Shown: one piece after another, positions 6,560 to 41,438 of the stretch
Layout: every line of letters starts with the position of its first letter
Numbering within the stretch: the first letter of the stretch is position 1
Virus record (IMG/VR): IMGVR_UViG_3300044709_000184
Location: 37,925 to 101,924 of that record
Length of the DNA: 64,000 nt
Strand: one strand, 5' to 3'
DNA from: a virus
Lineage: Duplodnaviria; Caudoviricetes
The notes under the pieces: model-generated
What the model was told of the DNA's origin: nothing
What the model saw: the letters and a program-made list of their open reading frames with translations, nothing else
The model's database searches: none
Position numbers and translations under genes: made by a program

Positions 6560-6587
6560 AGCGGGTACTCCTCAAAAGGAAGCGGGA

Positions 6588-8648: not shown

Positions 8649-8701
8649 GCGGTCTCCTCGTTGCTCAGGTAGTTGATCGCGCGCAGAGGGGGGTTTGGAC
8701 G

Positions 8702-21801: not shown

Positions 21802-23685
21802 TCAGGACCCGACCGTGTCGCAGCAGCCGGTCACCCCGCCTGGGTCGACGTTGACCCGGTAGAGGCGGCTGATCGGGCCCATCTGCATCACGGCCCATCC
21901 GTCCTCGACAAAGACGGCGGTGTATTGGTTGGTGGACAGCAGGGTCGAGTCGTAGATGGTGTCCAGGGACACGACGTCCTGTACTGGCTTGACCCAGGTG
22001 CCGGCCGGGTAGACAAGGAAGTCCGCGGTCAGCGGAAGCCGGGTCAGTGGGGTCGGCCCGCCGGGCCCGATCGCCAAACCCGCCCCGTAGTCCTGCCAGT
22101 CGTAGACGAAGCGGGGCACGGCGTTGCGGTCGGCGAACCAGGACAGCACCTCGGCGTTGGTGACCTGCCAGCCCTCCACGCCGCGGCGGCGGCCCAGGGC
22201 GGCCCGGATCTGCACCAGCACCCACCACGGCAGGACGACCTCCATGGTGGTGGCGAAGCCCATGCGGTTGCGGTACTTCGCATCGACGATGGCCAGGTCG
22301 ACCGCGGCGAGCAGGGCCGAGGCGGCGTCGTCGCCGTTGGGGTCCTGCGGGATGATGTTGGCCGCGCCGGAGCCGGACACGATGGCCGCGATCACCCCGA
22401 AATTGATCTTGTGTGCGAGGGCGACGGTAGCGCCCCGGGTGAACCGGGCAACGACCTCGGGGTAGCCGCGACGCTGCAGCAGACCACCGGTCAGACACAT
22501 GTAGTCGACGCCCAGCCTGATGTCCTCAAACGGGGGGCAGGGGATCTCGGTGCAGACCTTGGTCGTGTCGTCCATCACCTCGGCCTCGGTGAGGTGGGTG
22601 TCGCCGGCGTTGCCGATCGAGTTGTAGATCGTCGCGAAGTCGGGGCCGCCGTCAATCGGGATCTGCCAGCCACCGCGGGTGGTCTGGATCTCCGGGACGT
22701 CGAGCATGCCGTCGAGCGACTCGAGTTCCATCAGGTCGTAGATCACGTCGGATGGGGCGCACCATCCAGCGGCGGCGGTCAGGGACCGGCCGTTGCGGAC
22801 CGACTGGGCCACCGACTGGATCAGGCCACCACCGGGCAGGCGCCGCTCGTTGGCGGCGTACTCGGCGACCGCGTAGCCGTTGCCGAGCTGCTCATCCACG
22901 CGCAGCTCAGTCGGGAACTCCCGGCGCAGTTCGGCGATGTTGTGCCGCACGAACGAGCGCATGTCGAACCGGCGGCCCGGGTCGTCGCGGTCATACACCG
23001 TGACGGGGCGGGTCTTGCCAGCGAACCGCTTCGACCCGCGGGCCCGGCCGGCGGTCAGCGACTGGTACCGCTCCAGCTGGGTCGACAGGGCCCGGGCGGC
23101 GTCGCTGAACGATTCGAGCTGCTGACCGGCGGAGTAGCCGCCGATCGACGCGACCGCGTTGAGGCTGGCGTAGGCGCCCCGGGCGGGGGACCCGTTGGTC
23201 AGTGGTGTCGCGGCCCGCGAGTGTTGGGCAACCTGCCGTACCCGGGGCGCTGCTGCGGCGGGCCGGCGGGCAGCGGTCACGGACGCGGGGGCCAGGTCGA
23301 CTGGGGCCGGGTCGGTGTCGGCGGGTGCGTCCCCGCCGTCGGGTGGTTCGGTGTCGGTGTCGACGTCGGCCGGGTCGGTGTCGGGCAGGGCCAGGTCGTC
23401 GATCTCGGCGGCCAGGTCGCCGATCTCACCGGCACGGTCGCGGCGGCCGACGATGACGGCGGCGATGTCGCGGGCCAGGTCGCGGCAGGCCCGCAGGGCG
23501 GCCAGCGTGTCGTCGGTAGTTTCGGCCGGGCTGAGGCCGGTGAACCCGGTGGCGTGGCCGCGGACCTGCTCGTGCAGGGCACGCAGGTCATCGTCGGTGG
23601 CGGTGGCGAGGTCGGCGGGGACCTCGAACGGGAAGGTGTACTCCGCTGCGGCGGCGGGAGCGTCGACGATCGGCTCGTCAGGCAT
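21802..23685 (-). CDS. Major capsid protein (hexamer-type) with N-terminal scaffold-like region
   Basis: Acidic helical N-terminus; LTAAAGWCAPSDVIYD...VPEIQTTRGG...RGYPEVV...LDTIYDSTLLSTNQYTAVFVEDG. Confidence 0.85.
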   Translation of the reverse strand: MPDEPIVDAPAAAAEYTFPFEVPADLATATDDDLRALHEQVRGHATGFTGLSPAETTDDTLAALRACRDLARDIAAVIVGRRDRAGEIGDLAAEIDDLALPDTDPADVDTDTEPPDGGDAPADTDPAPVDLAPASVTAARRPAAAAPRVRQVAQHSRAATPLTNGSPARGAYASLNAVASIGGYSAGQQLESFSDAARALSTQLERYQSLTAGRARGSKRFAGKTRPVTVYDRDDPGRRFDMRSFVRHNIAELRREFPTELRVDEQLGNGYAVAEYAANERRLPGGGLIQSVAQSVRNGRSLTAAAGWCAPSDVIYDLMELESLDGMLDVPEIQTTRGGWQIPIDGGPDFATIYNSIGNAGDTHLTEAEVMDDTTKVCTEIPCPPFEDIRLGVDYMCLTGGLLQRRGYPEVVARFTRGATVALAHKINFGVIAAIVSGSGAANIIPQDPNGDDAASALLAAVDLAIVDAKYRNRMGFATTMEVVLPWWVLVQIRAALGRRRGVEGWQVTNAEVLSWFADRNAVPRFVYDWQDYGAGLAIGPGGPTPLTRLPLTADFLVYPAGTWVKPVQDVVSLDTIYDSTLLSTNQYTAVFVEDGWAVMQMGPISRLYRVNVDPGGVTGCCDTVGS

Positions 23686-23906
23686 GGAAGACCCCAATGA
23701 TCTGGTCTCACACCTGGCCTGACCGCAGCAGCCGCCAGTATGCGTAAGCGTCGGCGGGGGCCGGCCACACCGTCACGCCCCGTCCCGCTTGTCAATCGGG
23801 ACCGTAGTCGACAGGGGCAGGGCTGGGGGACAGATCAGCGGATCCATCCCCCAGCCGTGGCGCGCGCCGCATCAACCCCTCGAGATGGGCGCAGCGCCGG
23901 TCCCAG

Positions 23907-25630: not shown

Positions 25631-26365
25631 TCAGCCTAGCCCTGTGGTATGACCAAACTCGCCTAGCAGGGTGAGCACCTGATCGGGTGTTCGCGCGGCC
25701 CGGTAACGCCGGTATAGGGCGAGGCCGTCATGGCTTCCGATGGCGCGGGTCAGCCGCTGCTGCGGCTGGTGCCACAGGTGCCACAGCGGATTGGACTCCC
25801 GCCATGGCGGGCCGGCGATCACAGTGAGGGCCTGTCCCCAGCTGGTGTCTTCCTGCCCGTAGCCGACAAAGCGGGGGTCGAGGGGTACCTGCCGGTACAG
25901 GTCGGCGGGCAGGATGACACAGCCGCCGCCCATCTCGCCGTGGTGGGTTTCGGCGATCAGCCTGATCGGTGACGGTGTGCTGCCGCGGGCCGGGTCACCC
26001 CGCGACGGCGGCGGCGGCGTTCCGGTGGCGATGAGCCGATCGGTACCGGCCTCAGTGAGCCGGTACACCCGTTTGTGGGGCATCGCCCACGAGACGCTCC
26101 GGCCGGCGACCAGCTGTACCGCCTGACCAACACCGGGCACCAGCACGTCCGCGTCGGCGATCACCAGCACGTCGGCGTCGGTCATGGCCAGCGCGGCCGC
26201 GACAGCGGCCGCCTTGCACCATGGCCCCTCCGGCGGGATGCCCTCCAGCACGGGCCAGGTCGGATAGTGGTCGGCCCACCAGCGGGCCAGCCACGTCCAG
26301 GCCCGCTCCCGGTCCGGGTCGCCGCCGCGCCACGGCACCAGCACTGCTACGGTCGGGCCTCTCAC
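25631..26365 (-). CDS. GT-A glycosyltransferase (GT2/GT7-like)
   Basis: VLVPWR, LVIADAD, LDPRFVGYGQED, LWHLWH. Confidence 0.85.
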   Translation of the reverse strand: MRGPTVAVLVPWRGGDPDRERAWTWLARWWADHYPTWPVLEGIPPEGPWCKAAAVAAALAMTDADVLVIADADVLVPGVGQAVQLVAGRSVSWAMPHKRVYRLTEAGTDRLIATGTPPPPSRGDPARGSTPSPIRLIAETHHGEMGGGCVILPADLYRQVPLDPRFVGYGQEDTSWGQALTVIAGPPWRESNPLWHLWHQPQQRLTRAIGSHDGLALYRRYRAARTPDQVLTLLGEFGHTTGLG

Positions 26366-26457
26366 CGGCGGGGCCGCCGGATGTAGGCGATGAGCACCGC
26401 CGAGACGCACACGCACAATGCGATGAACGTGGCCGCGTCGGGCCAGGTGGTCACCAT
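26362..26457 (-). CDS. Single-TM microprotein
   Basis: MVTTWPDAATFIALCVCVSAVLIAYIRRPRR; overlaps both neighbours. Confidence 0.5.
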   Translation of the reverse strand: MVTTWPDAATFIALCVCVSAVLIAYIRRPRR

Positions 26458-26840
26458 GCAGGTTCGGTGGTGCGGTAGCGGCGGATGTGCTCGACCCAGC
26501 TGATGATCTCTACCCCGTCGTGGCGGGTCGCGTTGGGGTTGGTGATGTCGCCGGTGTGGCCCTGCCCGACGGCGTGGGAGTGCCCGGAGCCCGGCCCGTA
26601 GTGCTGGTGACTGACGTACATGTCGGGGCCCTCGACCTCGGGTCGGCCGCTGCGGCAGCCCGGCATCGGCACCAGATGCTGGCAGGGCTCGCCCGGCCGG
26701 CCGTCGCCGGCGCACACCTCGTTGCCGCCGCCGGCGACATGGGGACTCCAGTCGGCGCGGCGGTGCCGGTCTAGGTAGCCGTCGCTATCAAGCGGCGCGT
26801 CGGGTCGCCCACAGTGGGCGCACAGCCCGGCCCGGCTCAT
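26451..26840 (-). CDS. Hypothetical Cys/His-rich protein
   Basis: CAHC motif; coupled ORF. Confidence 0.45.
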   Translation of the reverse strand: MSRAGLCAHCGRPDAPLDSDGYLDRHRRADWSPHVAGGGNEVCAGDGRPGEPCQHLVPMPGCRSGRPEVEGPDMYVSHQHYGPGSGHSHAVGQGHTGDITNPNATRHDGVEIISWVEHIRRYRTTEPAW

Positions 26841-27148
26841 CCGGCCGGGTCCTGGTCCGGCGGCTCCGTCTCCTGCACGGCGTTACGGGTGCGCCGGCAG
26901 GCCCTGCACAGGTAGTAGTGGCGGTAGGTGCCCTGGCCGAGGTCCTGGCTGCGGAACAGCACCATCTCGGTGTTGCAGTGGTAGCACCAGGCGACCAGGT
27001 CGAGCCGAATATTATTCGGGTCGTGGTCGTCTTCGAGGTCGAAGTGGGCCTGGACCAGGTCCATGACCAGGTCGTTGGGGGGCCGCCAGCGGCAGGTCTC
27101 TACCGCACAGACCAGCACCAGCAGGTCGGGCTGGCGTCGTCCTGTCAT
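26837..27148 (-). CDS. Zn-finger protein
   Basis: CYHC...CRAC. Confidence 0.55.
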   Translation of the reverse strand: MTGRRQPDLLVLVCAVETCRWRPPNDLVMDLVQAHFDLEDDHDPNNIRLDLVAWCYHCNTEMVLFRSQDLGQGTYRHYYLCRACRRTRNAVQETEPPDQDPAG

Positions 27149-27255
27149 GGCCGGGACCGCCGACCGCCGACCACGATCAGGACGATCGTGAGGCCCAGCA
27201 GGCACAGCGAGCACACGGCGCCGAGTGTGGCCTCCGGCCAGGTCAGGCCCGTCAT
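27145..27255 (-). CDS. Single-TM microprotein
   Basis: MTGLTWPEATLGAVCSLCLLGLTIVLIVVGGRRSRP; ATGA coupling. Confidence 0.5.
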   Translation of the reverse strand: MTGLTWPEATLGAVCSLCLLGLTIVLIVVGGRRSRP

Positions 27256-27479
27256 GGCTGCTTCCCGGCCGGGGGTGGGACCAGCGGCGCGATGCTCAGC
27301 AGCGCCCCGGACGGGACCTGGTCGACGTACATGTTCACCAGGCCCTTCGCCACGTCGGCGTCGACGACGACCCGGGACACCATCGGGTACTGGGGCAGCA
27401 GCCCAGCCTGATGGAGGGCCTTGAGGAAGTCCTCGACCAGCACGTAGGGCCGGTCGGTGGTCGGCGTCTGATCCGTCAC
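27252..27479 (-). CDS. Hypothetical protein
   Basis: Coupled ORF. Confidence 0.5.
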   Translation of the reverse strand: MTDQTPTTDRPYVLVEDFLKALHQAGLLPQYPMVSRVVVDADVAKGLVNMYVDQVPSGALLSIAPLVPPPAGKQP

Positions 27480-27646
27480 GGCTGGGCACCCGAGCAGGTC
27501 CAGCCCGGCCGGCCGCCGTACACGACCTCGGTGTGCCCGCCCCGGGCCCGGCATTGGGAGTCGGTCCACCGGTACACCAGCGCTGAGATCAGGCAGCCCA
27601 CGGCCAGGACGGCCACGAGGAATGCCACCTGCCGCCAGCCCCTCAC
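27476..27646 (-). CDS. Small membrane-anchored protein with a Cys pair
   Basis: TM helix then C..RGG...WTC. Confidence 0.45.
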   Translation of the reverse strand: MRGWRQVAFLVAVLAVGCLISALVYRWTDSQCRARGGHTEVVYGGRPGWTCSGAQP

Positions 27647-28455
27647 TGCTGCCACCACCGCTGGTACGGGGCCGGGTCTTCGACCATGTCGACGTCGACC
27701 GGGGAGGCGTGCACGAAGTGCTTCAAATACACGTGCTCCACGACGTACTCGGGCCCGTACCGGGCGAGCAGCTCCCCGTAGGCGCGCCAGTGCGCCCCCA
27801 TGTCGGCGGGCAGATCGGTCAACGCGTAGGCCTCAGCCCCGTTGGTGGCCTTGGAGACGAACTGGGCGGCTGAGCGGTACGGGAAGTGGCGCAGCTGCAG
27901 GGCGTCGCTGCCCAGTCCGGCCATCACGTCGTGGGGCAGGTCGACGCTGTGGTTGCCTTGCCGAAGCCGGGCTCCGGGCCGCCACCGGAACGCCACCTTT
28001 CCCAGCTCGGCCGGCTCGCGGGTGCGCCACACCATCGACCGGAACGGGTCCGGGTCGTCGACGTCGATGGAGGTGCGGAAGTGGTTGTACAGGGCGGCCT
28101 GACAGACGTTGACCCGGAGCCCGGCCAGCACGTCACGGATCGGCCCGTGCGGGGAGTACCACAGCTCGTCGGCGTCGAACGGCACGATCCACAGGTCGCC
28201 GTCGTGTTCGGCGGCGGCCCGGTTGGCCAGGGCGGTCATCTTGTCGGCCTGGTAGTAGGCCGGGTCGAGGTCGTCGAGCACGGTGACCGGCACCGGCAGG
28301 TCAACGGCGGCCTTGGCGAGCAGGTCCCGGGTCCCGTCGATCGACCGGTTGTCCGCGACGTACAGGGCGTCGACCTCGCCGGCCAGGTGGGCCAAGGTCC
28401 CGGCGATCACGTCGGCCTCGTCCCGGACCATGGAGATCCCCACCACGGCGGTCAT
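27643..28455 (-). CDS. GT2-family glycosyltransferase
   Basis: SMVRDEAD, ADNRSIDGT, WIVPFDADE, QGNH, LRHFPYRS. Confidence 0.88.
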   Translation of the reverse strand: MTAVVGISMVRDEADVIAGTLAHLAGEVDALYVADNRSIDGTRDLLAKAAVDLPVPVTVLDDLDPAYYQADKMTALANRAAAEHDGDLWIVPFDADELWYSPHGPIRDVLAGLRVNVCQAALYNHFRTSIDVDDPDPFRSMVWRTREPAELGKVAFRWRPGARLRQGNHSVDLPHDVMAGLGSDALQLRHFPYRSAAQFVSKATNGAEAYALTDLPADMGAHWRAYGELLARYGPEYVVEHVYLKHFVHASPVDVDMVEDPAPYQRWWQQ

Positions 28456-28811
28456 CGGGTGGGCCGCTGCAGCTGCTGGGGCATCGGCCGGGCGGCCAGG
28501 CGGAGCATCTGTTCACGGTTGCGGCGCCCGCTGATACGGCGGGCCACGACCGTCACCGCGGCGCACCCGACCCACGCCGCCCCGGTCACGTAGTGGACCA
28601 GGCCGGCGCCGATGGCTGCCCGGACGACGTCCATGACGGCGATGGTCAGACATATCCAGACCAGCAGCAGCGGCGGCCAGCCTGGCACCCCGACCGGGCG
28701 GTGCCACATCAGCCACACGATGTAGGCCACAAACCCGACCATGACCGCGGTGGTGGTGACGTCGAGGACCTGCCCGACGAGGAGCAGCTCAGCCGGTGAC
28801 GGGGCGGTCAC
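28452..28811 (-). CDS. Three-TM membrane protein
   Basis: Three hydrophobic segments; coupled. Confidence 0.55.
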   Translation of the reverse strand: MTAPSPAELLLVGQVLDVTTTAVMVGFVAYIVWLMWHRPVGVPGWPPLLLVWICLTIAVMDVVRAAIGAGLVHYVTGAAWVGCAAVTVVARRISGRRNREQMLRLAARPMPQQLQRPTR

Positions 28812-29359
28812 GTGGACTCCTTCCGGGCGGAGCGGATGGCCAGCTCCGCCATGTCGCTGAACAGCCGGCTAGCCTGGCGCAGCTCAACCGACCGGCCGAC
28901 GTACAGCCACTGGGGCAGCGGCTGGCCGTCGTGGCCGACCCCGGTGAGGATCACCCCGGGCCGGACCAGGCCTGTGTCGCCGAGCGGCACGGCGGCGGCC
29001 TGCACGACCAGCTGGAGCATCAGGGCGTCCCCCGGATTGCTGCCGATCTTGAACGGGTTGTCGGCCAGGGGCGCGTCGATGAACTCGAGGGTCGGCATGT
29101 GCCGTTCGGCGGCCCTCGCTTCCAGGGCGTCGAGCACGGCCTTGGCCGGGTCGCACAGGTAGCGGGGGTCGTGGGCGGCGTCGCAGTGCCTGCAGTTGAT
29201 CGACGTCAACCCCACCGTGTCTTCGCCCCCGCTGGCCAGGATCGTGTCGGCATATGCGTCGCAGGGCACCTCGGTCAGCATCTCCACCGCAGCCAGCAAC
29301 GTGGCAACGACCTTTCCATGGCTGTCGGCGGGCAGGTCGGAACGCACCCGGATCGACAC
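28808..29359 (-). CDS. Hypothetical protein (start uncertain)
   Basis: Globular C-terminal part of track ORF 28808..30034; CRHC...H...C. Confidence 0.5.
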   Translation of the reverse strand: MSIRVRSDLPADSHGKVVATLLAAVEMLTEVPCDAYADTILASGGEDTVGLTSINCRHCDAAHDPRYLCDPAKAVLDALEARAAERHMPTLEFIDAPLADNPFKIGSNPGDALMLQLVVQAAAVPLGDTGLVRPGVILTGVGHDGQPLPQWLYVGRSVELRQASRLFSDMAELAIRSARKEST

Positions 29360-29411
29360 ATCACCATCACCCGTTTGGGGACTGGAGACGCTGATCGTGA
29401 TGTCGTAGCTG

Positions 29412-30038
29412 TCAGCGTCGGGCGTCGAACAGGACCGGGTGCACGACCGGCCACGGCTCGGCCAGGGGGGTGGCGAACAGCCCAGGGAAGTTCTGCGGGA
29501 AGCGCGTTGCGAAGAGCAGGTTCTGCCGGTACCAGTTTTCGACACGGTCGTCACCCCAGATGTGCCAGCGCAGCGCCCCCGACACCGCGTACCCATTGGC
29601 CCGGAACTTCTCCACCCAGTAGGCCGGCCACTGCTCATTGACGTGGCCGGTGCCGCCCTGCCCCGGGATGGCAGCCGAGAACAGGACGACCGGGGCGACC
29701 GCGCACAGGTCTTCGACGAAGCTGTCGGCCCGCTTCTCGGCCAAGTGCTCGGCGACCTCGAGCGCGATGGCCAGATCGACCTGGTACATGCCGCCGAAGG
29801 TGTAGCGCAGATCCCAGGCGACGAAACGGGCGTCGAGGGCGCCTCCCCCGCCGGGGCCGTCCAGGCCGAGCACCTCGCAGCCGCCCAGGTCGGCGAAGGC
29901 CTTCGCCCACCAGCCTTCCCCGCAGCCCACGTCGAGGACCGTGTAGGGGTGGAAGTGGTCCAGCACCAGCGGCACCACCACCGCGGCGGAGGCCTGACAG
30001 CCGGCCCGGATCGTGTCGAAGAAGGCGGCGTCATACAC
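29412..30038 (-). CDS. Class I SAM-dependent methyltransferase
   Basis: VLDVGCGEG, DLAIALEVAEHL, FSAAIPGQGGTGHVNEQ. Confidence 0.88.
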   Translation of the reverse strand: MYDAAFFDTIRAGCQASAAVVVPLVLDHFHPYTVLDVGCGEGWWAKAFADLGGCEVLGLDGPGGGGALDARFVAWDLRYTFGGMYQVDLAIALEVAEHLAEKRADSFVEDLCAVAPVVLFSAAIPGQGGTGHVNEQWPAYWVEKFRANGYAVSGALRWHIWGDDRVENWYRQNLLFATRFPQNFPGLFATPLAEPWPVVHPVLFDARR

Positions 30039-30762
30039 GGCGGGCCTCCACCAGTGCCCGCACCGCGGCCGGGCCCTGGGCGGCGGCGTCGCGGTACTGG
30101 GCCAGGATCGAGAACTGTTCAGCGTAGCCGGGATGCCCCGGCCTCGACTGGGGCAGCCGCGGATGCCACAGGTGGACCATCTTCCCTGGCAGCTGCCGGG
30201 TCGGGGCAACGATCGCGTCGCAGGCGTAGCGGAACGCGGCGTCGTCGCCGCCCCACACCCCGAACCGTTCGTCGAACCCGCCGGCCTGCTCCCAGGTGGC
30301 CCGGGAGAACACGACCACGTTGCCGGAGCCGCCTAGCCCGTGCTCGTCGAAGGCCGCCTCACGCAGCCCGAACGGGTCGACCAGGTCGGCCAGAATCCAC
30401 CGTGTTGGGTCTTCGCTCGCGTACAGGTACTGGCTGTGGGGGATGACCAGCCCGTCAGACCCGCCGGCCAGGTCGACGGCGTCGCGGAGCCGGTTCAGTG
30501 GCACCAGACTGTCCGGGTCGGTTTGCACGATCACCTTCGCGTTGGTGCGGCCGATCGCGGTGTTGATGGCCGACGCCCGGCCAAACGTGGCGTCGTCTTC
30601 GCCGCCCTCGACGATGATCGGCCAGTCCAGGTCGGTGTACCAGCGGGTGACGTAGTCGAAGGCCCGGCCCCGGTGGGGGCAGCCGGTGCGGGTCTCACCG
30701 TCGGCCCACAGGTATGTCCCCATCGGCCGGTAGGCGATCACGACCGCCGCGTCAGTAGCCAT
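30031..30762 (-). CDS. GT-A glycosyltransferase (GT7 C-terminal-like)
   Basis: FGRASAIN, QTDPD, GGFDERFGVWGGDD, HLWH. Confidence 0.85.
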   Translation of the reverse strand: MATDAAVVIAYRPMGTYLWADGETRTGCPHRGRAFDYVTRWYTDLDWPIIVEGGEDDATFGRASAINTAIGRTNAKVIVQTDPDSLVPLNRLRDAVDLAGGSDGLVIPHSQYLYASEDPTRWILADLVDPFGLREAAFDEHGLGGSGNVVVFSRATWEQAGGFDERFGVWGGDDAAFRYACDAIVAPTRQLPGKMVHLWHPRLPQSRPGHPGYAEQFSILAQYRDAAAQGPAAVRALVEARRV

Positions 30763-31537
30763 GCCCGCTCCTCGTCTCGCCGATGTGCTCGACCCACGGG
30801 CCGTCGTCGTGGCGGCCCCAGTACCCGAACCGGACGTCGCGGGGTGCTACTCCGGGCAGGCCCTGGGCGAGCAGGTCGAGGGTGAACCGGCCCTCCGACT
30901 GGGGAAGGTTGGGCCATGACCGGCGGCACACGTCCCGGTGGTACAACGATGGGTTGGTCGTCCAGAACAGCCGGTGCTCCAGCCATGCCCGGCCGGCCCG
31001 GTCGCTGGCCGGCTGGTAGGCGTCGGGCTGGCGGGCGATCAGCCCACCCGCGGCCCGCTCCTCGTCGTTCCAGGCCTGCCGGACCAAAGCCATCTGGGCC
31101 AGGTAGGGCCGGGTGTCCATGACGGCGGCCAGCTCACCCAGGTCGACCCGGCGGCGCAGGGTGAAGTCCTGCTCCAGGTGGAACACGTAGTCCACTGTGG
31201 AGTGTTCGGCGAGGCGGGCCCAGCAGGCCCGGATGGCCCCGCCGAAGCCTTGCCGGTGCCCGGCGTCGAAGTGCCGGAACGTCGGGTACCGGCGGGCCAG
31301 CGAGTCGCGGTACACGTAGTCGCCGGTGTCGTCGTACATCCACCATTCGGTGATCGGCCCCGACAGGTGGGCCATGGCCGACCGGACCGTATGGAGCAGG
31401 TACTCGTCGCGGCCGTCGGTGACGACCAGCACCGCGATCCGGACCTCCGGCCGGCTGGTGGTGGCTTTGGTGCCCTGCTCGAACGCGGCCTGGACGGCCC
31501 CGGCCGGCTCGTCGTCCTCGTAGAAGTCGCCGCTCAT
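30752..31537 (-). CDS. GT2-like glycosyltransferase
   Basis: VVTDGRDEYL, YDDTGD, YVFHLEQDF, WTTNPSLY, VEHIG. Confidence 0.78.
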   Translation of the reverse strand: MSGDFYEDDEPAGAVQAAFEQGTKATTSRPEVRIAVLVVTDGRDEYLLHTVRSAMAHLSGPITEWWMYDDTGDYVYRDSLARRYPTFRHFDAGHRQGFGGAIRACWARLAEHSTVDYVFHLEQDFTLRRRVDLGELAAVMDTRPYLAQMALVRQAWNDEERAAGGLIARQPDAYQPASDRAGRAWLEHRLFWTTNPSLYHRDVCRRSWPNLPQSEGRFTLDLLAQGLPGVAPRDVRFGYWGRHDDGPWVEHIGETRSGHGY

Positions 31538-32179
31538 GCGTGTCCGTCCCAGCGGTGCAGCCTCGGGGGGCGGCGCGGTCGCCGCCGCCGGTGGGTGGGG
31601 TGGGGCCATTCGTTGCGCAGGTGGTAGACCCGCCGCCGGCCCAGGGCCAGGGTGGTGAGCCGGAACCCGCCGCCGAGCGAGCACCTCGGCCGGGGCAGGG
31701 GTGCCCCGTCGTCGCCGTGGGGCATGGCCGCGGGCGTGTCTCCCGGCCGGGCGGGCACCCAGTGATCTGTCACCGTGCCGCGACCGTGTGCTGGTGATGG
31801 AGGTAGCCGGACAGGGTTTCGGCCAGGGGCCGCACCACCCGGCGCAGGTGGCAGACCGTCAGGATCGCCCCCTCAGACGGGGACTGGTCGACGTGTTCCC
31901 AGCCGGCCAGGATCGGCCAGCCACACCGGTCACAGTCCCGGTCACACCACAGGCACGGGGTCACTGCGCCTCGCCGGTCAGGATCGTGACGCGGTGTTCG
32001 GTGATGCCGGTGGCGACGTCGAACCAGCCCTCATCCCGCATCACCACGTCGTGGGCTGTCCCGGGGCGGGTGAGGTGCCGCCAGCCGTACCCGCCGACGA
32101 CCGGCACCAGCGCGATGTGGCCCCAGCACTGCCGGCACATGGTCGGGGGCCGGTAGTCGGCGGGCGGCTGGTGGGTCAC
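31534..32179 (-). CDS. Three small coupled hypothetical ORFs (31534-31773, 31770-31964, 31961-32179)
   Basis: Consecutive GTGA/ATGA overlaps; CxxC motifs in two of them. Confidence 0.45.
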
Positions 32180-32790
32180 GGCACCGGTACCCCGTTGGCG
32201 CGGGCGATGGCCCGGTGGGCTTCGAGGCGGGCCTCGCCGACCATGGCCCGGTTACGTGACCGCTGCCGCACATGGGCCCGGTACACAGCGGCCGGGACCG
32301 CTTCGAAGGTGGCGCCGGCCAGGTGGCAGCGCAGCCACAGGTCCCAGTCCTCTGACCACGGGAAGTCACGCCAGCCGCCCACCGTGTGGACCAGCTCGGT
32401 GCGCACGGCGGCGCCGACCACCAGCCAGTTCCCGTACGGCAGGCACGCCGCGGCGCAGTCGTGGTCGTGGCCGGCGACCCGCGGCATGGCCACCCGGGCG
32501 GCCCGGTCACCGAAGCCGCGCACGTACCGCACCGACGGGGCCCGCACATCAGCGGTCGCGGCGGCCATGGCCTGGACGTAGCCGGCCTCGAGTTCGTCGT
32601 CGGCGTCGAGGTGGATGACCCATTCGGTGGTGACCTGGGCCAGGGCCCCGTTGCGGGCGTCGTGGAGGGTGCCGGCGTGGTGATGGACGACCGGCACGCC
32701 CAGGGCCCGGGCCGACGGTATTGCCCGGGTGCGGGCCAGCTGCTCCCATTCGGGGGTGCCGAACGTGGCGACGGCGACGGTCACCTCCAC
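32176..32790 (-). CDS. GT2-family glycosyltransferase
   Basis: ARNGAL, WVIHLDADD, VGGW, EDWDLWLR. Confidence 0.88.
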   Translation of the reverse strand: MEVTVAVATFGTPEWEQLARTRAIPSARALGVPVVHHHAGTLHDARNGALAQVTTEWVIHLDADDELEAGYVQAMAAATADVRAPSVRYVRGFGDRAARVAMPRVAGHDHDCAAACLPYGNWLVVGAAVRTELVHTVGGWRDFPWSEDWDLWLRCHLAGATFEAVPAAVYRAHVRQRSRNRAMVGEARLEAHRAIARANGVPVP

Positions 32791-33446
32791 CGGTACCGCC
32801 GCCGGTTGAACAGCCGCCGCCCGGCGGCCATGCGTCGCTGCTGGTCGCGGTAGGTGGCGTCGAGGGGCACCTCAGGATGCCAGTTGGGGTGCAGGTGCTC
32901 GACCCGGGCGTCGAGGGCCATGACGAAGGCCTGGCGGTGTTTGGCGGTGCCAACCAGCTCGTCGTCGACGAACTCGTGCGGGTAGCACTCGGCCAGCACC
33001 TGGCCGGGGCCGTCGATGGTGCCGTACCGGTCGACGTAGTCGCGGGTCACCAGCGAATGGGTCGAGTGTTGCCCGGCGGTGACGCGGGGGTTGCCCAGGT
33101 CGTTGGTGCCGATCACCCCGGCCCCCGCCACGGTGAGGGCCCGCCGGCAGGCGTCGAGCCAGCCCGGGTGGAAATGCAGGTCCGACGCCCCGAGGAAGAT
33201 CAGCGGTTCGGTGGTGGCCCGGTACCCGGCGTTGATCTTCCGGGCGTAGTCGCCGATCGGGACCCGGCCGACCAGCATCATGTCGGCGCCGACGGCCCGG
33301 ACCTCGGCCAGCACGTCGACGTCGTTGTGGTGGCACACGAACAGGGCCCGGGCCTGGTCGGTGGACTCTGCCAGCGACGCCAGCAAGGGCCGCACCCGGT
33401 GGGCGCGGCCCAGCATGGGCACCAACACAACGACGTCGACGGTCAC
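32781..33446 (-). CDS. GT2-like glycosyltransferase
   Basis: VLVPMLGR, YARKINAG, IFLGASDL, FVDDEL, VEHLHP. Confidence 0.8.
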   Translation of the reverse strand: MTVDVVVLVPMLGRAHRVRPLLASLAESTDQARALFVCHHNDVDVLAEVRAVGADMMLVGRVPIGDYARKINAGYRATTEPLIFLGASDLHFHPGWLDACRRALTVAGAGVIGTNDLGNPRVTAGQHSTHSLVTRDYVDRYGTIDGPGQVLAECYPHEFVDDELVGTAKHRQAFVMALDARVEHLHPNWHPEVPLDATYRDQQRRMAAGRRLFNRRRYRWR

Positions 33447-33462: not shown

Positions 33463-33612
33463 TCATTTGCCGACGGCCTCGTACCGGGCGCCGGGGACCT
33501 TCCCCGCGGCGATGCGGGCCGCGACGGCGGACTGTTTGGTCTCCGTCCAGCCGTTGGGGTGGGCCTCGTCGGCCGGGTAGGTCACCACCCATTTGGTTCT
33601 GCAGCTACACAC
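33463..33612 (-). CDS. Small CxC protein following the protease
   Basis: MCSCRTKWVVTYP...; GGAGG RBS; overlaps the protease stop. Confidence 0.5.
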   Translation of the reverse strand: MCSCRTKWVVTYPADEAHPNGWTETKQSAVAARIAAGKVPGARYEAVGK

Positions 33613-36109
33613 GGGCCACCTCCGCTTCGATCTGGCGGGCCAGGCCGGCCGCGACCCGGGCCCGCTCATCGGCGTCGACGTGGGCCAGGGCGGCCTCGAC
33701 CTCGGCCATCAGCGCGGCTGCTGTGTCGGCCTCGGCCGCGTCGACGCCCGGCTGGGTGGGGGCCGGTTCGGCCTGCCCGCCGCCCAACGGGATGTCGTGG
33801 TTCGACCCGGCGAACGCGACCCGGAGCCGGTCGAAGGTGACCGGCCCGGTCCGGTCGGCCAGGGCACCCACCAGCGACAGGTCATCGGTGTAGGCCAGGG
33901 TCACGTGCGGCACGAACGGCTGGTGTTGGGCCGGGAACCCGTACACGGCCTTGACGACGTCGTGGACCTGCTGGTGGGCGGCGGCGAGCTGCTCACCGGA
34001 GACACCCATGACGATGCAGGGGTCCTTGCCGTCGGTGTTCGGGTTGAACGCGTTGATGGAGAAGCCGTCACCGGTGATGGCCAGGTCACCTTCGGCGGCG
34101 GTGTGCCACTCGGCGGCCAGGGCGGTCAAACCGTCGATGATGGCCTGCCGGCTGGCGGCGTTGATGTCGGCGGCCTCACCCAGGTAGACGAGGGTGAGGT
34201 GGAGCTGGTCGGCTGGTTCGCCCCCGTCGACGGCCAGGCGGGCCGCGTCGTCGTCGGTCATCCGCAGGGCGACCATGGCCCCGGTCTGCTCGACCGGCAT
34301 GGGCATGTCCTCACAGCCCGGCTCGCCCGGCGGGCAGTCCGGTGCTGGGGGCTGCTGGTCCGGGGGCGGGGTCTGCTGGTCGGCGGCGGTGACCACCCCA
34401 GCGGACAGGCCGCCCTTAAACGCGGCCCGCAGCTGGTCGAGGACCGAGTTGAACATGGCGGCCAACCCGGCCAACGTCGGCGGCTCGACCCGGGCCGGGG
34501 TGAGCAGCTCGGCCGGGGGGACAGCCCCGGCGGCGATCAGCGAGTGTTGGCGGCCGTCGCGGAGCACGGTCTGCGGGATGGGGAAGCCGGGCTCTTCGCG
34601 GGTCAGGGCGAGCAGCTCCACCATCTCGAGGTGCCCGGCGTAGTCACGCCAGTCGCCCGACACCCGCTGGCGGGCCAGCACGGCCAGGTCGTCGACGGTG
34701 GCGTCGTCGGCGACGATGCCCTGTACCCACACCCCGACCCCCGGGTATTCGGTGGCCCGCACGTGGGCCAGGGTCCGCATCCGGTCGTGGTGGGCGATGG
34801 TTTCGGACAGGCCGTAGTCGCGGCAGGCGTGGTCGTCGTTGCGGCGGCAGGCCAGGTGCGAGCACCCGGACCCGACCCGGCCCAGGCCGGTGGTGATGCG
34901 CCCCACCCCGAGCAGCCCGGCGGTGGTTTGCATCGGGTACCGGTGGAACAGGGCGTAGTCGACGTGGGCGGCCGGGACCTGGATGCACACGTCCCGGAAA
35001 CCGACGTGGCAGGCCCCGAACGGGGCCATGTACCCGGCGACCCGCCGGAACGTCTCACCGGGCCGGGCCGCGGCCACGGTGACGAGCTGGTAGGCGGGGG
35101 CGTCGGCCGGGCCGGTGAACACGTCATCGGGTAGCACCGCCGCCGCGGTCAGCGCAGCTAGCCGCGACGCCGACCCGGCCGAGGTGGGGCAGTCGGGCCA
35201 GTCGGGGAACTTGGCCTGGATCTGCCCGTACAGGGTGCAGATCTTCGACTTGATGCGGGTCTTCTCATCGGCCGGGATGTTGGCCGCGTCGACGCCGTGG
35301 CCGCCGGCGCTGGCCGCCACACCCCGCGGGATGATGCGCAGCTCACCGTCGACCACGTCGGCGTAGCCGAGCTTGTAGGCCGTCTTGGTGGCCGGGTCGG
35401 CGTCGGGGTTGCGGTACAGGAACGCCTTCGCCACCGCGGCCGTGTCGACGGTGCCGTCGGCGGCGGTGTACTTGTCGAAGACCCGGCCCATGGCGGCGGG
35501 CCCGTCCCACGCCGTCTCGCGGTCGGCGATGGGCAGGTCGGTGGCGCCGGTGACCGCCGCGACCAGCGACGGCTCCTGGGTCTGGTCGACGGCGGGGAGC
35601 AGCTGGAACGGGCGGGCCTCCACGAACGCGGGGATCGGCACCAGCGTGGCGGCGGCGATCTCGTAGTCGGTGAAAAGCATCTCGATCGGGGCCGGCTCGC
35701 CGGTTTCCATCTCCTGCCTGATCAGGTCTTCCCAGTCGGCGTCGGTCAGCGGGGTGTCGGAGCCCTCCCGCACGAACACCATGTCCGCGGCGCCGGCGTC
35801 GACGCTGGGCCCGATGACCTTCTTGTCGGTCAACAACATGGCTTCGGCCACGTCCTGGGACAGGCGGGGCAGGTTGGGTTGGTCGTCGAACAGCTCACCC
35901 TCAGCCCATACCTGGCCCGACGCTTCGTCGATGTCGAGGGTGTCGACCAGGCCGACGACGACCGACGTGTCGTGGCCGGACTCGTCCTGGCGCTGCCACT
36001 TCAACGGCAGCGGTAGCGGCCGGGCCCGGAAGGCGCCCTTGGCCATACGCCGACCGTCGCCGGTCGGCTGATCGATCGGCGCGAGCATGCCGCGCCACCG
36101 CGTACCCAT
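33605..36109 (-). CDS. Capsid maturation protease polyprotein with C-terminal 2H phosphoesterase (Acb1-like) domain
   Basis: N-terminal TGDGR...GH...VVG...GPSVD...AATLVPIPAF protease domain; two internal domains; C-terminal LHLTLVYLG...FVPHVTLAY (two HxT motifs). Confidence 0.82.
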   Translation of the reverse strand: MGTRWRGMLAPIDQPTGDGRRMAKGAFRARPLPLPLKWQRQDESGHDTSVVVGLVDTLDIDEASGQVWAEGELFDDQPNLPRLSQDVAEAMLLTDKKVIGPSVDAGAADMVFVREGSDTPLTDADWEDLIRQEMETGEPAPIEMLFTDYEIAAATLVPIPAFVEARPFQLLPAVDQTQEPSLVAAVTGATDLPIADRETAWDGPAAMGRVFDKYTAADGTVDTAAVAKAFLYRNPDADPATKTAYKLGYADVVDGELRIIPRGVAASAGGHGVDAANIPADEKTRIKSKICTLYGQIQAKFPDWPDCPTSAGSASRLAALTAAAVLPDDVFTGPADAPAYQLVTVAAARPGETFRRVAGYMAPFGACHVGFRDVCIQVPAAHVDYALFHRYPMQTTAGLLGVGRITTGLGRVGSGCSHLACRRNDDHACRDYGLSETIAHHDRMRTLAHVRATEYPGVGVWVQGIVADDATVDDLAVLARQRVSGDWRDYAGHLEMVELLALTREEPGFPIPQTVLRDGRQHSLIAAGAVPPAELLTPARVEPPTLAGLAAMFNSVLDQLRAAFKGGLSAGVVTAADQQTPPPDQQPPAPDCPPGEPGCEDMPMPVEQTGAMVALRMTDDDAARLAVDGGEPADQLHLTLVYLGEAADINAASRQAIIDGLTALAAEWHTAAEGDLAITGDGFSINAFNPNTDGKDPCIVMGVSGEQLAAAHQQVHDVVKAVYGFPAQHQPFVPHVTLAYTDDLSLVGALADRTGPVTFDRLRVAFAGSNHDIPLGGGQAEPAPTQPGVDAAEADTAAALMAEVEAALAHVDADERARVAAGLARQIEAEVARV

Positions 36110-36121: not shown

Positions 36122-36970
36122 TTACGTGACCTGCGCGATTTGCTTGGCCCACCAGGCATCGGCGTCCTTGAAGCCCCGCCCGGTCATGTCGGTGGTCTCG
36201 CCCGGCCGCTCCAGCAAGGTCGTGCACCGGCACTGGATGACGTTCGACGGCGACCCGGTCGGGTCGCCGGGGCGCATGAGGTGTTCACCGTCGACGAGGA
36301 ACGGGGTGCCCAGCGGCACCCGCTGCCCGTCGGCGGCGAGGTGGGCCGGGCGGACCCGACTGTCCAATGTGGCCAGCCAGGTCTGTTCGAACTCGCCGCC
36401 CAACGTGTCGGCCACCGCGGCGAAGGCGTCGGAGCGGCCGAAGTTCAGGGCACCCAACGTTTCGGTGCGGGCCACCACCACGGCCCGGTTGCGCCAGGTC
36501 GGGGTGGCGGTGGCGGTGAGGACCTCGTCGACGCGGTCGGCGATGGCCGGGATGGACTCACCGGCCGCGGCGCCGGCGGCGACCTGGGACGCGACGGCGT
36601 CGTATACCTGCTCCGGGGTGTTGACCATCCGGTTGTGGACCTCACCCAGGTAGGTCGTGACGGCCGGGCGGTGATCGAACAGGTAGTCCGGGCCGAACAG
36701 CTGGGCGTAGGGCAGGCCGACCGCGTCGCGGATGGAGCCGTACACGACGCCGTCCATCAGCGACGACCATTCCGGGGCGTGGGCCCAGACGGCGTTCGGG
36801 TCGGGTCGGTCGCTGGCCAGCACACCGCGGTGGACCTCGACCAGCCACTGCGACAGCGACGACCACCACGACCGGTAGACCCGCCGTTCGGCGGCCATCG
36901 CGTCGATTTCGTGGGCGATGCGGGCCGGCAGGTACGGGTCGACGCCGGTGCCGTCCCAGGGTTGGCTCAT
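36122..36970 (-). CDS. MuF-like minor capsid/head morphogenesis protein
   Basis: RAVVVARTE, WLATLDSRVRPAH, DGQRV, PGDP...NVIQCRC. Confidence 0.88.
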   Translation of the reverse strand: MSQPWDGTGVDPYLPARIAHEIDAMAAERRVYRSWWSSLSQWLVEVHRGVLASDRPDPNAVWAHAPEWSSLMDGVVYGSIRDAVGLPYAQLFGPDYLFDHRPAVTTYLGEVHNRMVNTPEQVYDAVASQVAAGAAAGESIPAIADRVDEVLTATATPTWRNRAVVVARTETLGALNFGRSDAFAAVADTLGGEFEQTWLATLDSRVRPAHLAADGQRVPLGTPFLVDGEHLMRPGDPTGSPSNVIQCRCTTLLERPGETTDMTGRGFKDADAWWAKQIAQVT

Positions 36971-37233
36971 GCGGTCACCTCGATCAGGTGCCACACGTAG
37001 GTGCCGCCGGGTGCGGTGGCGGTGCCCCACACCCGGCACCCTTCGGGCAGGACGTGGCCGGTGCCGGCCACCGTGAACCGGTATGGGCGCAGCGGCACCC
37101 CGTCGCGGTGGATGGCCCAGAACTCGACCACCTCCGGGTCGCGGCAGCCGACGTGGGCGGGGGTGCCGTTGAGTTCGATGACGTGGACCTGGTCGTCGAC
37201 GGGCACCTGGTAGCGGTGGATCCGGGCGCTCAC
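36967..37233 (-). CDS. Conserved small phage protein
   Basis: IHRY...FWA...GTGH...GT...VWHL.E pattern. Confidence 0.6.
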   Translation of the reverse strand: MSARIHRYQVPVDDQVHVIELNGTPAHVGCRDPEVVEFWAIHRDGVPLRPYRFTVAGTGHVLPEGCRVWGTATAPGGTYVWHLIEVTA

Positions 37234-37427
37234 GAGGTCACCTCGGCCAGGTCCCGGTGGGCGCGGTCGACGTCGAGGAGGCAGATGGCGGCCGCCTCGC
37301 ACTGCCCAGCCCATTGCGGCCCGTTCGGGTCGACGTCATGGGCGGTGGTGATGTGGCCGCACAGCACCAGGGCGTCAAGGCCGTTGCGTCGCGCGACGGC
37401 TGCGAGCACCTCCCACGGGGTGCTCAT
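37230..37427 (-). CDS. Hypothetical protein
   Basis: ATGA/GTGA-coupled. Confidence 0.45.
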   Translation of the reverse strand: MSTPWEVLAAVARRNGLDALVLCGHITTAHDVDPNGPQWAGQCEAAAICLLDVDRAHRDLAEVTS

Positions 37428-39427
37428 GCCGCGACCAGGTCGGGGGCGTTGAGGCGCCGGCCGGTGCAGGCCGCGTCGACCAGGTCACGCAGCAGGGCCG
37501 GGTCGTAGCCCAGGCCGCGGGTCAGCAGCTCCAGGCAGAACCCGTGGAGCAGGGCCTCCACCTGGCCCGGGTCGAGGCCCAGGTCTTCGGCGGCGGGGGC
37601 CAGGTCGATCCAGGCGCCGCGCAGGACCCGTTCGGCGTCGCCGGGGCTGACCGGGCCGCGGCGGGTGTGGAGCTGGTAGCGGGGCGTGTCGGGCCACTGG
37701 TCGCGTTGGTGGTGGGTGATCAGCCGCACCCCGGCCAGGCCTAGGGCCCGCCGCACAGCTAAACCGGCCACCGGCAGCAGCAGGCTCGCCGTCGTCGGGG
37801 CCGGCTGGGGGGCGGGTTGGGTCGGGGTCGGGGCCGGTTGGGGGGCCTCGGTCGGCTGGGCTGGGATGGCCCGCGGCTGACCCGGTTGAGGTTCGCCCGG
37901 CTGGGCGGGCTGCTGGGTGGGGCCGCCCACCCCGGGCGGGGCGGTCGGGGCCGTCACCGACGGCGCCGGCGCTGGCAGCCCGATCAACGTCCGGATGGTC
38001 GGGTCGGTGAGCAGGGTCGGGTCGGCGATGAGGGCCTTCTCGGCGAGGCGGCGTAGCCGCTCCCGCTGGGTGGGCATCTGCTCCGGCACGAACGCGCCCG
38101 CGACCACGGCCGCCTCGTCGGAGAGCAGCAGCTCCTCGTGGTAGGCCAGGGCGTCGGTCGAGCGGTTGGGCCGGGCCGACAGGGGCGCGGTGTCGAAGTC
38201 GTACGAGTACAGGTCCGGGTCGAGGCCCATCGACTCGAGCGCCGGGCGGAGGTAGCCGGTGGTGAGGGCGTCCGCGATCCGCGACAAGATCGGTTTGATC
38301 TGCGTGGTGATCGCATCGTCGCTCACCTGCCAGGCAGTCCAATGATTACTGTCTGCCTGGCCTAGGAGGATTTCGGGCGGAATGTCGAGGCCCTGGGCGA
38401 GGGACCGGACGGCGGCCTCCCGCAACGGCAGCAACTGCTCGCTGAGGTCGGACCAGAACGTGATCAGCTTGATCTTGTCGACGGCGTCGGGGGGGACGGT
38501 CATCAGGATCGGCACCAGCGCCTCAGCCGAGGCCCGGTCCCGCAGCGAGGTGGCCATGGCCCGCATGAGGACCCGCTGGAAGCCGTCGACGCCGGGGGGG
38601 TCGTCGGGGCCGCGGGGGAAGTCGATGCCCTGGGGCAGGGCGAGCAGCCCGGCGCCGGCGAGGCGGCTGTCCAGCTCGGCGAACTCGCGCTTGCGGAGGG
38701 CCTCGATCTCACGCAGGTCGGGGATGGCGGAGCGGGTCGGGGAGTCCGGCTCGTCCGGGTCTGCCGGGTGGGGGGTCCACACCTGCAGCAGCAGGTCGAT
38801 GCCGGGGCGGAACACCATGTCGCCGCCGCCGTGGAGCAGGGACCGGCGGATGATGATGCGGTCGCCGGACAGGCGGATCTGGCGGCCCGACACGACGTAC
38901 CACAGGTCGTCGCCGTCGGGGGCGGCGTCGGCTTCGGCGACCACGTAGCCGTCGCCTGGGACGTACAGGTTGATGGCGAGCAGGCGCAGCGCCTCGTCCT
39001 TGGCGGGGCCCTTCCCGAGCGGGCCCTGGGCCAGGACGGCAATGTCGGGGTCTTCGGTTTCGCCGGTGACCTCGCCCGACTCGTCCAGCTCGGCCACGTA
39101 CAGCCGGCACCGGCTGACCGAGTTGCCGATCCAGTTGCACACGAACCGCAGCTGGGGGGTGATGTCGTACAGCCGCCACGCCTCGGCCTGCCAGGTGCGT
39201 GACCCGGGCCGCCAGGTCCGCCACCCAACGCCGTCCATTTCGACGGAGGCGACCGACGCGGTGACCGACTGGGCGGGCAGGGTGATCGCGGTCAGGGCGT
39301 GGCTTGCGCACCGGTCGGTGCCGTGGCTGGTCCAGTGTCGGCACCGTGAGCCGGTGGAGGAGGCGACGGCGGTGCAGCGCTGGTCGAGGTCGGGGAGGCG
39401 CCGCGCGGGCAGCGTCGCCACCGTCAC
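37424..39427 (-). CDS. Portal protein
   Basis: WQAEAWRLYD.TPQLRF, SRLAGAGLL, LAQGLDIPPEILLG, NHWTAWQ; follows terL. Confidence 0.85.
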   Translation of the reverse strand: MTVATLPARRLPDLDQRCTAVASSTGSRCRHWTSHGTDRCASHALTAITLPAQSVTASVASVEMDGVGWRTWRPGSRTWQAEAWRLYDITPQLRFVCNWIGNSVSRCRLYVAELDESGEVTGETEDPDIAVLAQGPLGKGPAKDEALRLLAINLYVPGDGYVVAEADAAPDGDDLWYVVSGRQIRLSGDRIIIRRSLLHGGGDMVFRPGIDLLLQVWTPHPADPDEPDSPTRSAIPDLREIEALRKREFAELDSRLAGAGLLALPQGIDFPRGPDDPPGVDGFQRVLMRAMATSLRDRASAEALVPILMTVPPDAVDKIKLITFWSDLSEQLLPLREAAVRSLAQGLDIPPEILLGQADSNHWTAWQVSDDAITTQIKPILSRIADALTTGYLRPALESMGLDPDLYSYDFDTAPLSARPNRSTDALAYHEELLLSDEAAVVAGAFVPEQMPTQRERLRRLAEKALIADPTLLTDPTIRTLIGLPAPAPSVTAPTAPPGVGGPTQQPAQPGEPQPGQPRAIPAQPTEAPQPAPTPTQPAPQPAPTTASLLLPVAGLAVRRALGLAGVRLITHHQRDQWPDTPRYQLHTRRGPVSPGDAERVLRGAWIDLAPAAEDLGLDPGQVEALLHGFCLELLTRGLGYDPALLRDLVDAACTGRRLNAPDLVAA

Positions 39428-39860: not shown

Positions 39861-41438
39861 TCAGGCCAGGGGTGACAGGCCGGTCGTGCCGGCCCCGATG
39901 CCGGCCAGGGGCGAGACTGAGCTGGCCGGCATCGTCCCGGACGGGGCGGCGAACTGGACCCCGGTCGAGGGGATCGGCAGCAGCCCGTAGCCGAGGTAGA
40001 CCGAGGCGTCGATGCGGCCAGGCGATGACGGGTCAGACGGCTGCCACGTCGTCCATTCCCGTTCCAGGTCGACGAAGATGCCCCGCAGCCGCACCCGGTC
40101 CATGAACATCTGCTGGGCGATCGGCTCGGCCCGCAGCAGCTTGCCCTGCCGGGCCCGGACCACCCTGATCAGTGGGCACAGTTCTTCCCCGTCGATCTCG
40201 CCTTCGGCGACGAGCCGGGCCCACGCCGACCGCACCACCAGCGTGGCCATGTCCCCGCCGTAGTTGGTCTCCACGATGATCGACGCGGCGCCGATGTCGT
40301 AGGCCAGCCGCACCGCGGCCAGCGACCACTGCTCGGCCGACATGACCCCCGACACGTCGTCGGTGATCCACAGCCGGCCGTCGGCGCCCAGGAAGCCGCC
40401 GACGATGCCGGCGACGTCGCGGCCCCCGCCGGACGGGTCGACCGCCACGGCGATGCGTTGGGCCTCAATCTCGGTTCGCGAATCGCGAATCTCGCGCAGC
40501 AGCTCACCGGTGACCAGCGCCCCCTGCGCGGGCTGGGGGTCGCCCTGATACAGCGAATGCCAGTCCCGCAGCATCGATGAGGCCTGCTTCTCCGTCCACC
40601 AGGCCAGCAGCCCGGCCGTGTCGGTGGAGGCGATCTTCGGGTGGGTCAGCGGCGCCCCCGCGGCCCGGCCGAGCGGGTCAGGCCCGAACCGGGGGTCGGC
40701 CAGGGCCGGCAGGTGGACGACCTTCCACCGGCCGCCCTCCTCGAGCCGGCCCTCCTCGGCCAATCGACGGCCGGCGAAGTCGTCCAGGTGCCAGCGGGTC
40801 TGAATGGCGATCACGGCACCCATGTCGGGCTGGAGCCGGGCACTGGCGGTGGACGACCACCAGTCATGCACGGCGTTGCGGATGCGGTGGCTTTCGGCCT
40901 CGGCCCGGTCGGCGTGCGGGTCGTCGACGACGAGCAGGTTGGCCGGGAACCCGGACAGACCACCCCCCACGCCGATGGCCCGCAGGTGCCCACCCGACTC
41001 GAGGCGCCAGTCCCTAGACGACGTCGACCCCCGCAGCGGGCGCAGCCCGTACTCGTGGCCGTACCGGCCGATCAGGTTCTGCACCGCCTTGGACCGGGCC
41101 TCGGCTAGGTCGGCCCCGTAGGAGGCGATGACCACATCGTCGGCGGACCGGTTGGCCAGCCACCAGAACACCCCCCACTCACCGACCAGGGTCGACTTGC
41201 CGACCTGGGGTGGGGTGAGCACGAGGAGCCGGTCGTAGTCGCCGCGCAGCACCCCCGCCATGGCCTGCCCGATGACCCGCAGATGCGGCCGGGTCCGGTA
41301 CTCCCCGTCCAGCCCGCGGGCCATGCGGGACGGGTCGGTGAGCAGGTCACGGGCCAGGGACCGCTGCGCGGCCAGCAGCGTCGAATAGACGGTCAGATCA
41401 TCGGCGCCGGCAAGGCCACCACGGTCGAGAAGGGTCAT
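39861..41438 (-). CDS. terL: Terminase large subunit
   Basis: Walker A PPQVGKS, Walker B LLVVDDP, QTRWH, YQGDP, nuclease AVDP...ETNYGG...SPGRIDA. Confidence 0.92.
   Translation of the reverse strand: MTLLDRGGLAGADDLTVYSTLLAAQRSLARDLLTDPSRMARGLDGEYRTRPHLRVIGQAMAGVLRGDYDRLLVLTPPQVGKSTLVGEWGVFWWLANRSADDVVIASYGADLAEARSKAVQNLIGRYGHEYGLRPLRGSTSSRDWRLESGGHLRAIGVGGGLSGFPANLLVVDDPHADRAEAESHRIRNAVHDWWSSTASARLQPDMGAVIAIQTRWHLDDFAGRRLAEEGRLEEGGRWKVVHLPALADPRFGPDPLGRAAGAPLTHPKIASTDTAGLLAWWTEKQASSMLRDWHSLYQGDPQPAQGALVTGELLREIRDSRTEIEAQRIAVAVDPSGGGRDVAGIVGGFLGADGRLWITDDVSGVMSAEQWSLAAVRLAYDIGAASIIVETNYGGDMATLVVRSAWARLVAEGEIDGEELCPLIRVVRARQGKLLRAEPIAQQMFMDRVRLRGIFVDLEREWTTWQPSDPSSPGRIDASVYLGYGLLPIPSTGVQFAAPSGTMPASSVSPLAGIGAGTTGLSPLA

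Follow-up and report, generated by a model that had tools for sequence, protein, structure and literature searches.

Why should a phage protein in the position of a prohead protease end in a phosphoesterase, and where would such an enzyme act? The question is raised by a 64,000-nucleotide stretch of viral DNA (hereafter, the window, in whose coordinates all positions are given) that corresponds to bases 37925-101924 of a 101.9-kb IMG/VR record, IMGVR_UViG_3300044709_000184, estimated by CheckV to be 94% complete. An open reading frame (ORF) on its minus strand, at 33605..36109, encodes a protein of 834 amino acids (aa; P0001), for which 516 homologues were found. Here, we explored the architecture of this protein, its relatives in actinophages and the short motif that it has in common with the capsid and portal proteins. 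The reading that we favor, and that we consider probable although well short of certain, is that the protein is a protease-cargo polyprotein which enters the head, cuts itself at the motif and leaves a 2H phosphoesterase behind as cargo for the next host.

A polyprotein of five parts

The ORF is free of stop codons over its whole length, and two AlphaFold models built on alignments of homologues (predicted local distance difference test, pLDDT, 87.6 and 85.8) divide its product into five parts, namely, a protease domain (D1), two internal domains (D2 and D3), a 2H phosphoesterase domain and a C-terminal helix. The parts are punctuated by four linkers of low pLDDT, at residues 175-182, 312-322, 522-541 and 567-581. 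D1 (residues 1-174; 35588..36109) adopts the HK97/assemblin fold of prohead serine proteases; D2 (residues 187-310; 35180..35551) is small and optional, about 50 of 121 homologues having it; and D3 (residues 330-522; 34544..35122), a Cys/His-rich beta domain, is present in all 121. The 2H phosphoesterase occupies residues 609-778 (33776..34285), with the motifs HLTL at residues 637-640 (34190-34201) and HVTL at residues 735-738 (33896-33907), and is followed by residues 791-834 (33608..33739), which form one long helix in the model. These coordinates, like those of the other genes discussed below, refer to the minus strand. A previous reading of this DNA, made without database searches (the sequence-only reading), had described an 834-aa protein with a protease at its N-terminus, two inner domains and a C-terminal domain bearing two HxT motifs at ~33790-34285. 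The ORF, the fold models and the two motifs agree with this layout, and the span, which translates into residues 609-773, falls inside the 2H domain as delimited by Pfam family PF13563 and by the fold.

Homologues without the 2H domain retain the C-terminal helix, so that the 2H domain resembles a cassette that has been slotted in after the last linker and ahead of a conserved C-terminal tail. When the longer homologues were scanned for alternative cargo domains, 2H was the only one recognized. The protein thus unites several unrelated domains, including a peptidase and an effector enzyme, in a single chain encoded among virion genes, which are the hallmarks of polyvalent proteins.

A candidate cut-site code shared by polyprotein, capsid and portal

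Each of the four linkers coincides with a copy of the same short element: SLVAA (residues 181-185; 35555..35569), ALTAA (residues 319-323; 35141..35155), SLIAA (residues 523-527; 34529..34543) and, just upstream of the 2H domain, VVTAA (residues 572-576; 34382..34396). The third of these is found as GRQxSL(T/I/V)AA in 115 of the 121 homologues. That the four elements mark domain boundaries had been proposed from the letters alone, and their location in the low-pLDDT linkers bears this out. Within the 834-aa protein itself, the excess of the motif is modest, with 4 matches to [LV][TVI]AA against ~0.65 expected from composition; we judge the motif to be real because of the comparative evidence, that is, its placement in linkers, its enrichment there and its conservation in capsid and portal proteins. 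Across the 121 homologues, linkers (~124 positions) hold 393 matches to [LVI][TVI]A[AS] and folded parts (~710 positions) hold 68, which makes the motif ~33-fold denser in linkers. Furthermore, all seven site classes have Ala or Ser as their P4 residue, though P4 lies outside the search pattern.

The same element is found in two further head proteins. The major capsid precursor (631 aa; 21802..23697), which includes a delta domain of ~309 aa, has one copy (SVTAA; 23269-23283) inside the delta domain, where this VTAA site is kept in 112 of 121 capsid homologues within a Pro/Ala stretch that is otherwise hypervariable. A second copy (SLTAAAGW; 22762-22785), in the context GRSLTAA-AGWCAPS, immediately precedes the HK97-like core, and GRSLTAA-AGWC is present in all 121 capsid homologues. 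In the portal protein (37424..39427), SVTAS (residues 55-59; 39254-39268) marks the point where a variable N-terminal extension gives way to the conserved core; of 121 portal homologues, 97-98 (the figure varies with the count) have the motif at this junction. The recurrence of the motif in the capsid precursor and near the portal N-terminus, also pointed out in the sequence-only reading, is therefore located precisely and conserved among homologues. Another copy, near the N-terminus of a 262-aa protein whose gene follows that of the capsid (20959-21747), lacks conservation in phages phiAsp2, MelBins and BabyGotBac and was treated as a chance occurrence.

The motif, with Leu or Val at P3, a polar residue at P2, Ala at P1 and a small residue at P1', matches the sites of pseudorabies virus assemblin, YLQA↓T and VQA↓S (PMC4498786; the arrow marks the scissile bond), and the herpesvirus rule (L/V)-x-A↓(S/T). 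By analogy, the candidate sites would be cut after the first Ala of A-A/S. Such a cut would leave a predicted mature capsid protein of ~322 residues, an ordinary size for the HK97 fold; for capsids of this kind, a structural survey had found the delta-domain cleavage site not to be predictable (bioRxiv 10.1101/2022.09.09.507160). Taken together, these sequence comparisons provide good support for a lineage-wide candidate cut-site code shared by the polyprotein, the capsid and the portal. Our literature searches, which were limited and cannot prove novelty, found no paper stating this motif.

Shuffled modules in actinophage relatives

In GenBank, 404 actinophage records match the 2H domain, ~190 of them outside Mycobacterium, and the matches sampled outside Mycobacterium reside in large genes of the head module that bear the labels 'RNA ligase' or 'capsid maturation protease'. 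The relatives have homologous D1, D2, D3 and 2H modules as well as the linker motif in common with the 834-aa protein, but the order and content of the modules vary. In Streptomyces phage BabyGotBac, gp11 (5191-8769) has the order MuF-2H-D1-D2-D3, with LTA(A/S) at the linker positions, and the capsid protein carries DLVAS-GGWCAPSE. In Gordonia phage MelBins, gp19 (5950-8706) consists of D3-2H, with GRSLTAA and GALTAA; the capsid protein contains SLTAA-GGPGGWCS, and the portal and MuF proteins bear the motif near their N-termini. At the other extremes, phiAsp2 encodes D1-D3 without 2H, whereas Bxz1 encodes a solo 2H protein of 183 aa. To judge from these arrangements, the modules are shuffled as cassettes and the motif survives the shuffling, with BabyGotBac providing a natural experiment. 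Downstream of its 2H domain, MelBins gp19 has a Pro/Ala-rich tail of ~300 aa with three repeats of the form 'LEDxxPxTGAxGGxLVxYxGDTG...YxDG(T/S)xTxGKxW'.

A proposed route into the head and out to the next host

We propose that the C-terminal helix would draw the precursor chain into the procapsid, as happens with herpesvirus pUL26 and HK97 gp4. The protease would then cut after the Ala of L-T-A↓A/S, trimming the capsid and portal proteins and dicing its own chain. The resulting fragment of ~27 kDa, comprising the 2H domain and the tail, would be too large to escape and would remain in the head, from which it would enter the next host along with the DNA. There, it could act on the cyclic or 2'-5' oligonucleotides of defense systems, or on RNA or 2',3'-cyclic phosphate ends; this is the least certain step.

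Several points weigh against this scheme. The role of the helix as a capsid-targeting tail is inferred only, by analogy. In this Ala-rich proteome, non-structural ORFs of the window, too, contain xLTAA by chance. MelBins keeps the motif although D1 was not detected in it, so that the enzyme which recognizes the motif may be D3 or a different one. The data would fit RNA as well as a cyclic oligonucleotide as the substrate. Finally, we found neither experimental cleavage sites nor virion proteomics in the literature for actinophages bearing the 2H domain.

Identity and substrate of the 2H domain

As is characteristic of the 2H superfamily, the domain has an internally duplicated fold bearing two H-x-T/S motifs, both of them conserved in relatives. 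Its score with PF13563 is 34.8 bits (cut-off, 27), and all 10 relatives compared match this family as well, 9 of them above 27 bits. The match to LigT_PEase reaches 22.4 bits, and that to the ThpR/LigT equivalog TIGR02258 reaches 30.7 bits, below its cut-off of 65.7, indicating the same type of fold but not an equivalog. By its sequence, then, this is a catalytically intact LigT-type 2H phosphoesterase with intact catalytic motifs. The sequence-only reading had called it Acb1-like. The 2H part of that assignment holds, as PF13563 and the fold attest, whereas the Acb1 part is not supported by the sequence profiles: the Acb1 model (PF23474) gives 17.5-20.1 bits, below its gathering threshold of 27 bits, and likewise yields sub-threshold signals on four ordinary control genomes; and only 1 of the 10 relatives matches it, with 18.4 bits. 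In structure, LigT-type enzymes seem to be closer relatives than Acb1. Furthermore, Acb1 of T4 (gp57B) and Erwinia phage FBB1 stands alone as a compact protein of ~150 aa and has a C-terminal lid (PMC9117128), unlike the 2H domain described here, which is part of a long chain and scores below the cut-off of the Acb1 hidden Markov model.

The alternative that survives best retains the same architecture and packaging but makes RNA, not the cyclic oligonucleotides of immunity, the target of the 2H domain. The enzyme could be a 2',3'-cyclic phosphodiesterase or a Usb1-like RNase, which would heal RNA ends cut by host anticodon nucleases or attack host RNA. We regard this as possible, if on the doubtful side, both for the general form of the alternative and for these specific activities.

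Which domain reads the motif

D1 has an assemblin/gp21-like fold, and H46 and S102 are invariant among 83 sequences; from their order and spacing, they presumably constitute a catalytic pair of the gp21 or HK97 gp4 type. Searches with the Pfam families Peptidase_S78/S77 returned nothing at E<=10 across the whole record and nothing at E<=0.1 for residues 1-590. The sequence of D1 being too diverged for these models, its membership among proteases rests on the fold. A hidden Markov model made from 121 D1 sequences did not pick up the ORF at 9056-9802 (minus strand) at E<=1, so that any kinship of that ORF with D1 would be very distant. Sequence searches of the PDB with the capsid protein and with a profile spanning D1 to 2H likewise gave nothing useful. 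For D2, a weak lead to DUF6582 (score 0.79) was dropped, as the corresponding Pfam model has no match in the record. A tandem duplication of proteases underlying D1, D2 and D3 is not supported either, hhalign having detected no relationship among the three.

D3 is the more enigmatic domain. C367, H368, C375, C416, H427, C429, D442, S484 and W487 are invariant, and C421 and H440 nearly so. The D3-type family matches PHROG 29860, 'virion structural protein', and among its neighbors in a language-model atlas are S77/S80 prohead proteases, along with a 'head processing protein', at scores of 0.92-0.94 and with fewer than 170 shared features, so that these are leads only. D3 is possibly a second head-processing domain. 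Hence a further alternative, in which D3, alone or together with D1, recognizes L-T-A-A/S, with D1 in an auxiliary role. It draws on the universal presence of D3 among the 121 homologues, on its conserved H368, H440 and S484, on the atlas neighbors and, above all, on MelBins, in which D3 but not D1 is found and the motif is nonetheless kept in capsid, portal, MuF and gp19. In addition, Gordonia proteins of 330-368 aa that are annotated 'capsid maturation protease' are too short to hold both D1 and D3. However, neither structure nor profile searches matched D3 to a protease, those with a model of 590 residues being dominated by D1, and the clear protease fold with an invariant His/Ser pair belongs to D1. 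We therefore consider it doubtful that D3 is the cutter.

Delivery or disposal

The 2H domain might instead work late in the producing cell only, whether still within the precursor or once released, and then be degraded or expelled at maturation rather than delivered. Such a fate would resemble that of the HK97 protease, which digests itself and whose fragments exit the capsid; Rosebush gp13, a relative lacking 2H, accounts for only 2-3 spectra in virion gel bands in published mass-spectrometry tables. Yet a folded domain of ~19 kDa cannot pass through capsid pores, and the 2H domain looks built to survive the protease, with 19 motif matches inside its fold against the 393 in linkers. The PHROG label of the D3-type family as a virion structural protein also speaks for retention in the particle. 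Disposal in the producing cell is, accordingly, quite unlikely in our view. Least probable of all is that [AS]-L-T-A-[AS] is a docking or beta-addition peptide for assembly rather than a cleavage site: the second capsid site and that of the portal border on conserved sequence, and their own conservation might be structural, but the element resides in disordered, otherwise hypervariable linkers, follows permuted domains, fits the P3/P1/P1' pattern of assemblins and sits exactly where removal of the delta domain would leave a ~322-aa HK97-fold capsid protein.

Relation to known systems

The favored reading, a self-cutting polyprotein that leaves its 2H domain in the head, takes up a prediction that had been published before. 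Iyer, Burroughs, Anand, de Souza and Aravind reported 2H domains in fusion with MuF or portal proteins, for which they predicted packaging and injection, the domains either degrading defense (oligo)nucleotides or acting as RNases (Iyer et al. 2017, PMC5512222; 2022, PMC9503650). As in those polyvalent proteins, the 2H domain here is fused to a head-assembly protein among late structural genes and has no associated RNA ligase. Unlike in those cases, the carrier is a prohead protease and is N-terminal, whereas the 2017 survey found assemblin-like peptidases at C-termini only (PMC5512222), and every junction has a conserved candidate cut site common to capsid and portal. These two features, the N-terminal protease carrier and the candidate cut-site code, are what goes beyond the earlier predictions.

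The comparison with herpesvirus pUL26 is similarly instructive. Here, the stretch between protease and tail consists of the 2H cargo and two domains rather than a scaffold, the scaffold function lying in the delta domain of the capsid protein itself, and D1 shows a single invariant His where herpesvirus assemblin has its His-Ser-His triad. By contrast with the internal proteins of T4 (IPI*), which are cut by gp21 at the motif L/I-x-E, are encoded by separate cargo genes and have an N-terminal targeting peptide, the cargo here is part of the same chain as the protease.

Should the code prove right, the mature N-termini of capsid, portal and head cargo in hundreds of actinophages could be read from it; it would extend the parallel between herpesviruses and phages from the protease fold to substrate specificity, and it would constitute a natural, modular way to load enzymes into phage heads. 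A still broader proposal, which is speculative and which we think unlikely to hold in full, is that a whole lineage of actinophages (Rosebush/phiAsp2-like, Gordonia and Streptomyces phages) shares a single code of the assemblin type, [AS]-[LV]-T-A↓[AS], which is near to the (V/L)-x-A↓S rule of herpesviruses and serves as a plug-in socket, such that any domain placed between two sites and the tail would be encapsidated, released and injected. The 2H domain would then be a pre-made nuclease, directed from the first second of infection against the cyclic-oligonucleotide signals of cyclic oligonucleotide-based antiphage signaling systems (CBASS) or type III CRISPR systems. The anti-signaling role of 2H domains is a published prediction, which the cultured relatives MelBins and BabyGotBac render directly testable. 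Apart from counter-defense biology, these questions are relevant to the engineering of therapeutic mycobacteriophages and their Gordonia phage relatives.

Genomic setting

The virus is a phage of ~102 kb with an actinobacterial host and a head module of the Rosebush/phiAsp2 type; its G+C content is ~71%. The head genes follow one another on the minus strand, beginning with the large terminase (39861-41438), followed by the portal, a MuF-like head morphogenesis protein (36122..37039) directly upstream of the 834-aa ORF, the ORF itself, a glycosyltransferase block and the capsid precursor. The location of the 834-aa gene between portal/MuF and major capsid is the one expected for a prohead protease. 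The capsid protein is of the type annotated as 'major capsid hexamer protein' in Rosebush-like mycobacteriophages, and its best phage match is Pas14 of Actinoplanes phage phiAsp2 (54% identity). Elsewhere in the window, ARAGORN predicts a tRNA-Glu(CTC) of 92 nucleotides (44522-44613, minus strand), which could be spurious or else a tRNA of unusual length.

Several of the genes that separate the protease polyprotein from the capsid gene (25631-33446, minus strand) are glycosyltransferase-like. Within this block, a 408-aa ORF starting with ATG (28808-30034, minus strand) is gene-like in its C-terminal part only, its first ~200 residues being rich in Arg, Ser, Pro, Thr and Trp, as is typical of off-frame reading in high-GC DNA; the true gene is probably shorter or in another frame. 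Products encoded at 32781-33446, 32176-32790, 30752-31684 and 30031-30762 match glycosyl or galactosyl transferases in PHROG, and the block as a whole recalls the virion glycosylation of some actinophages.
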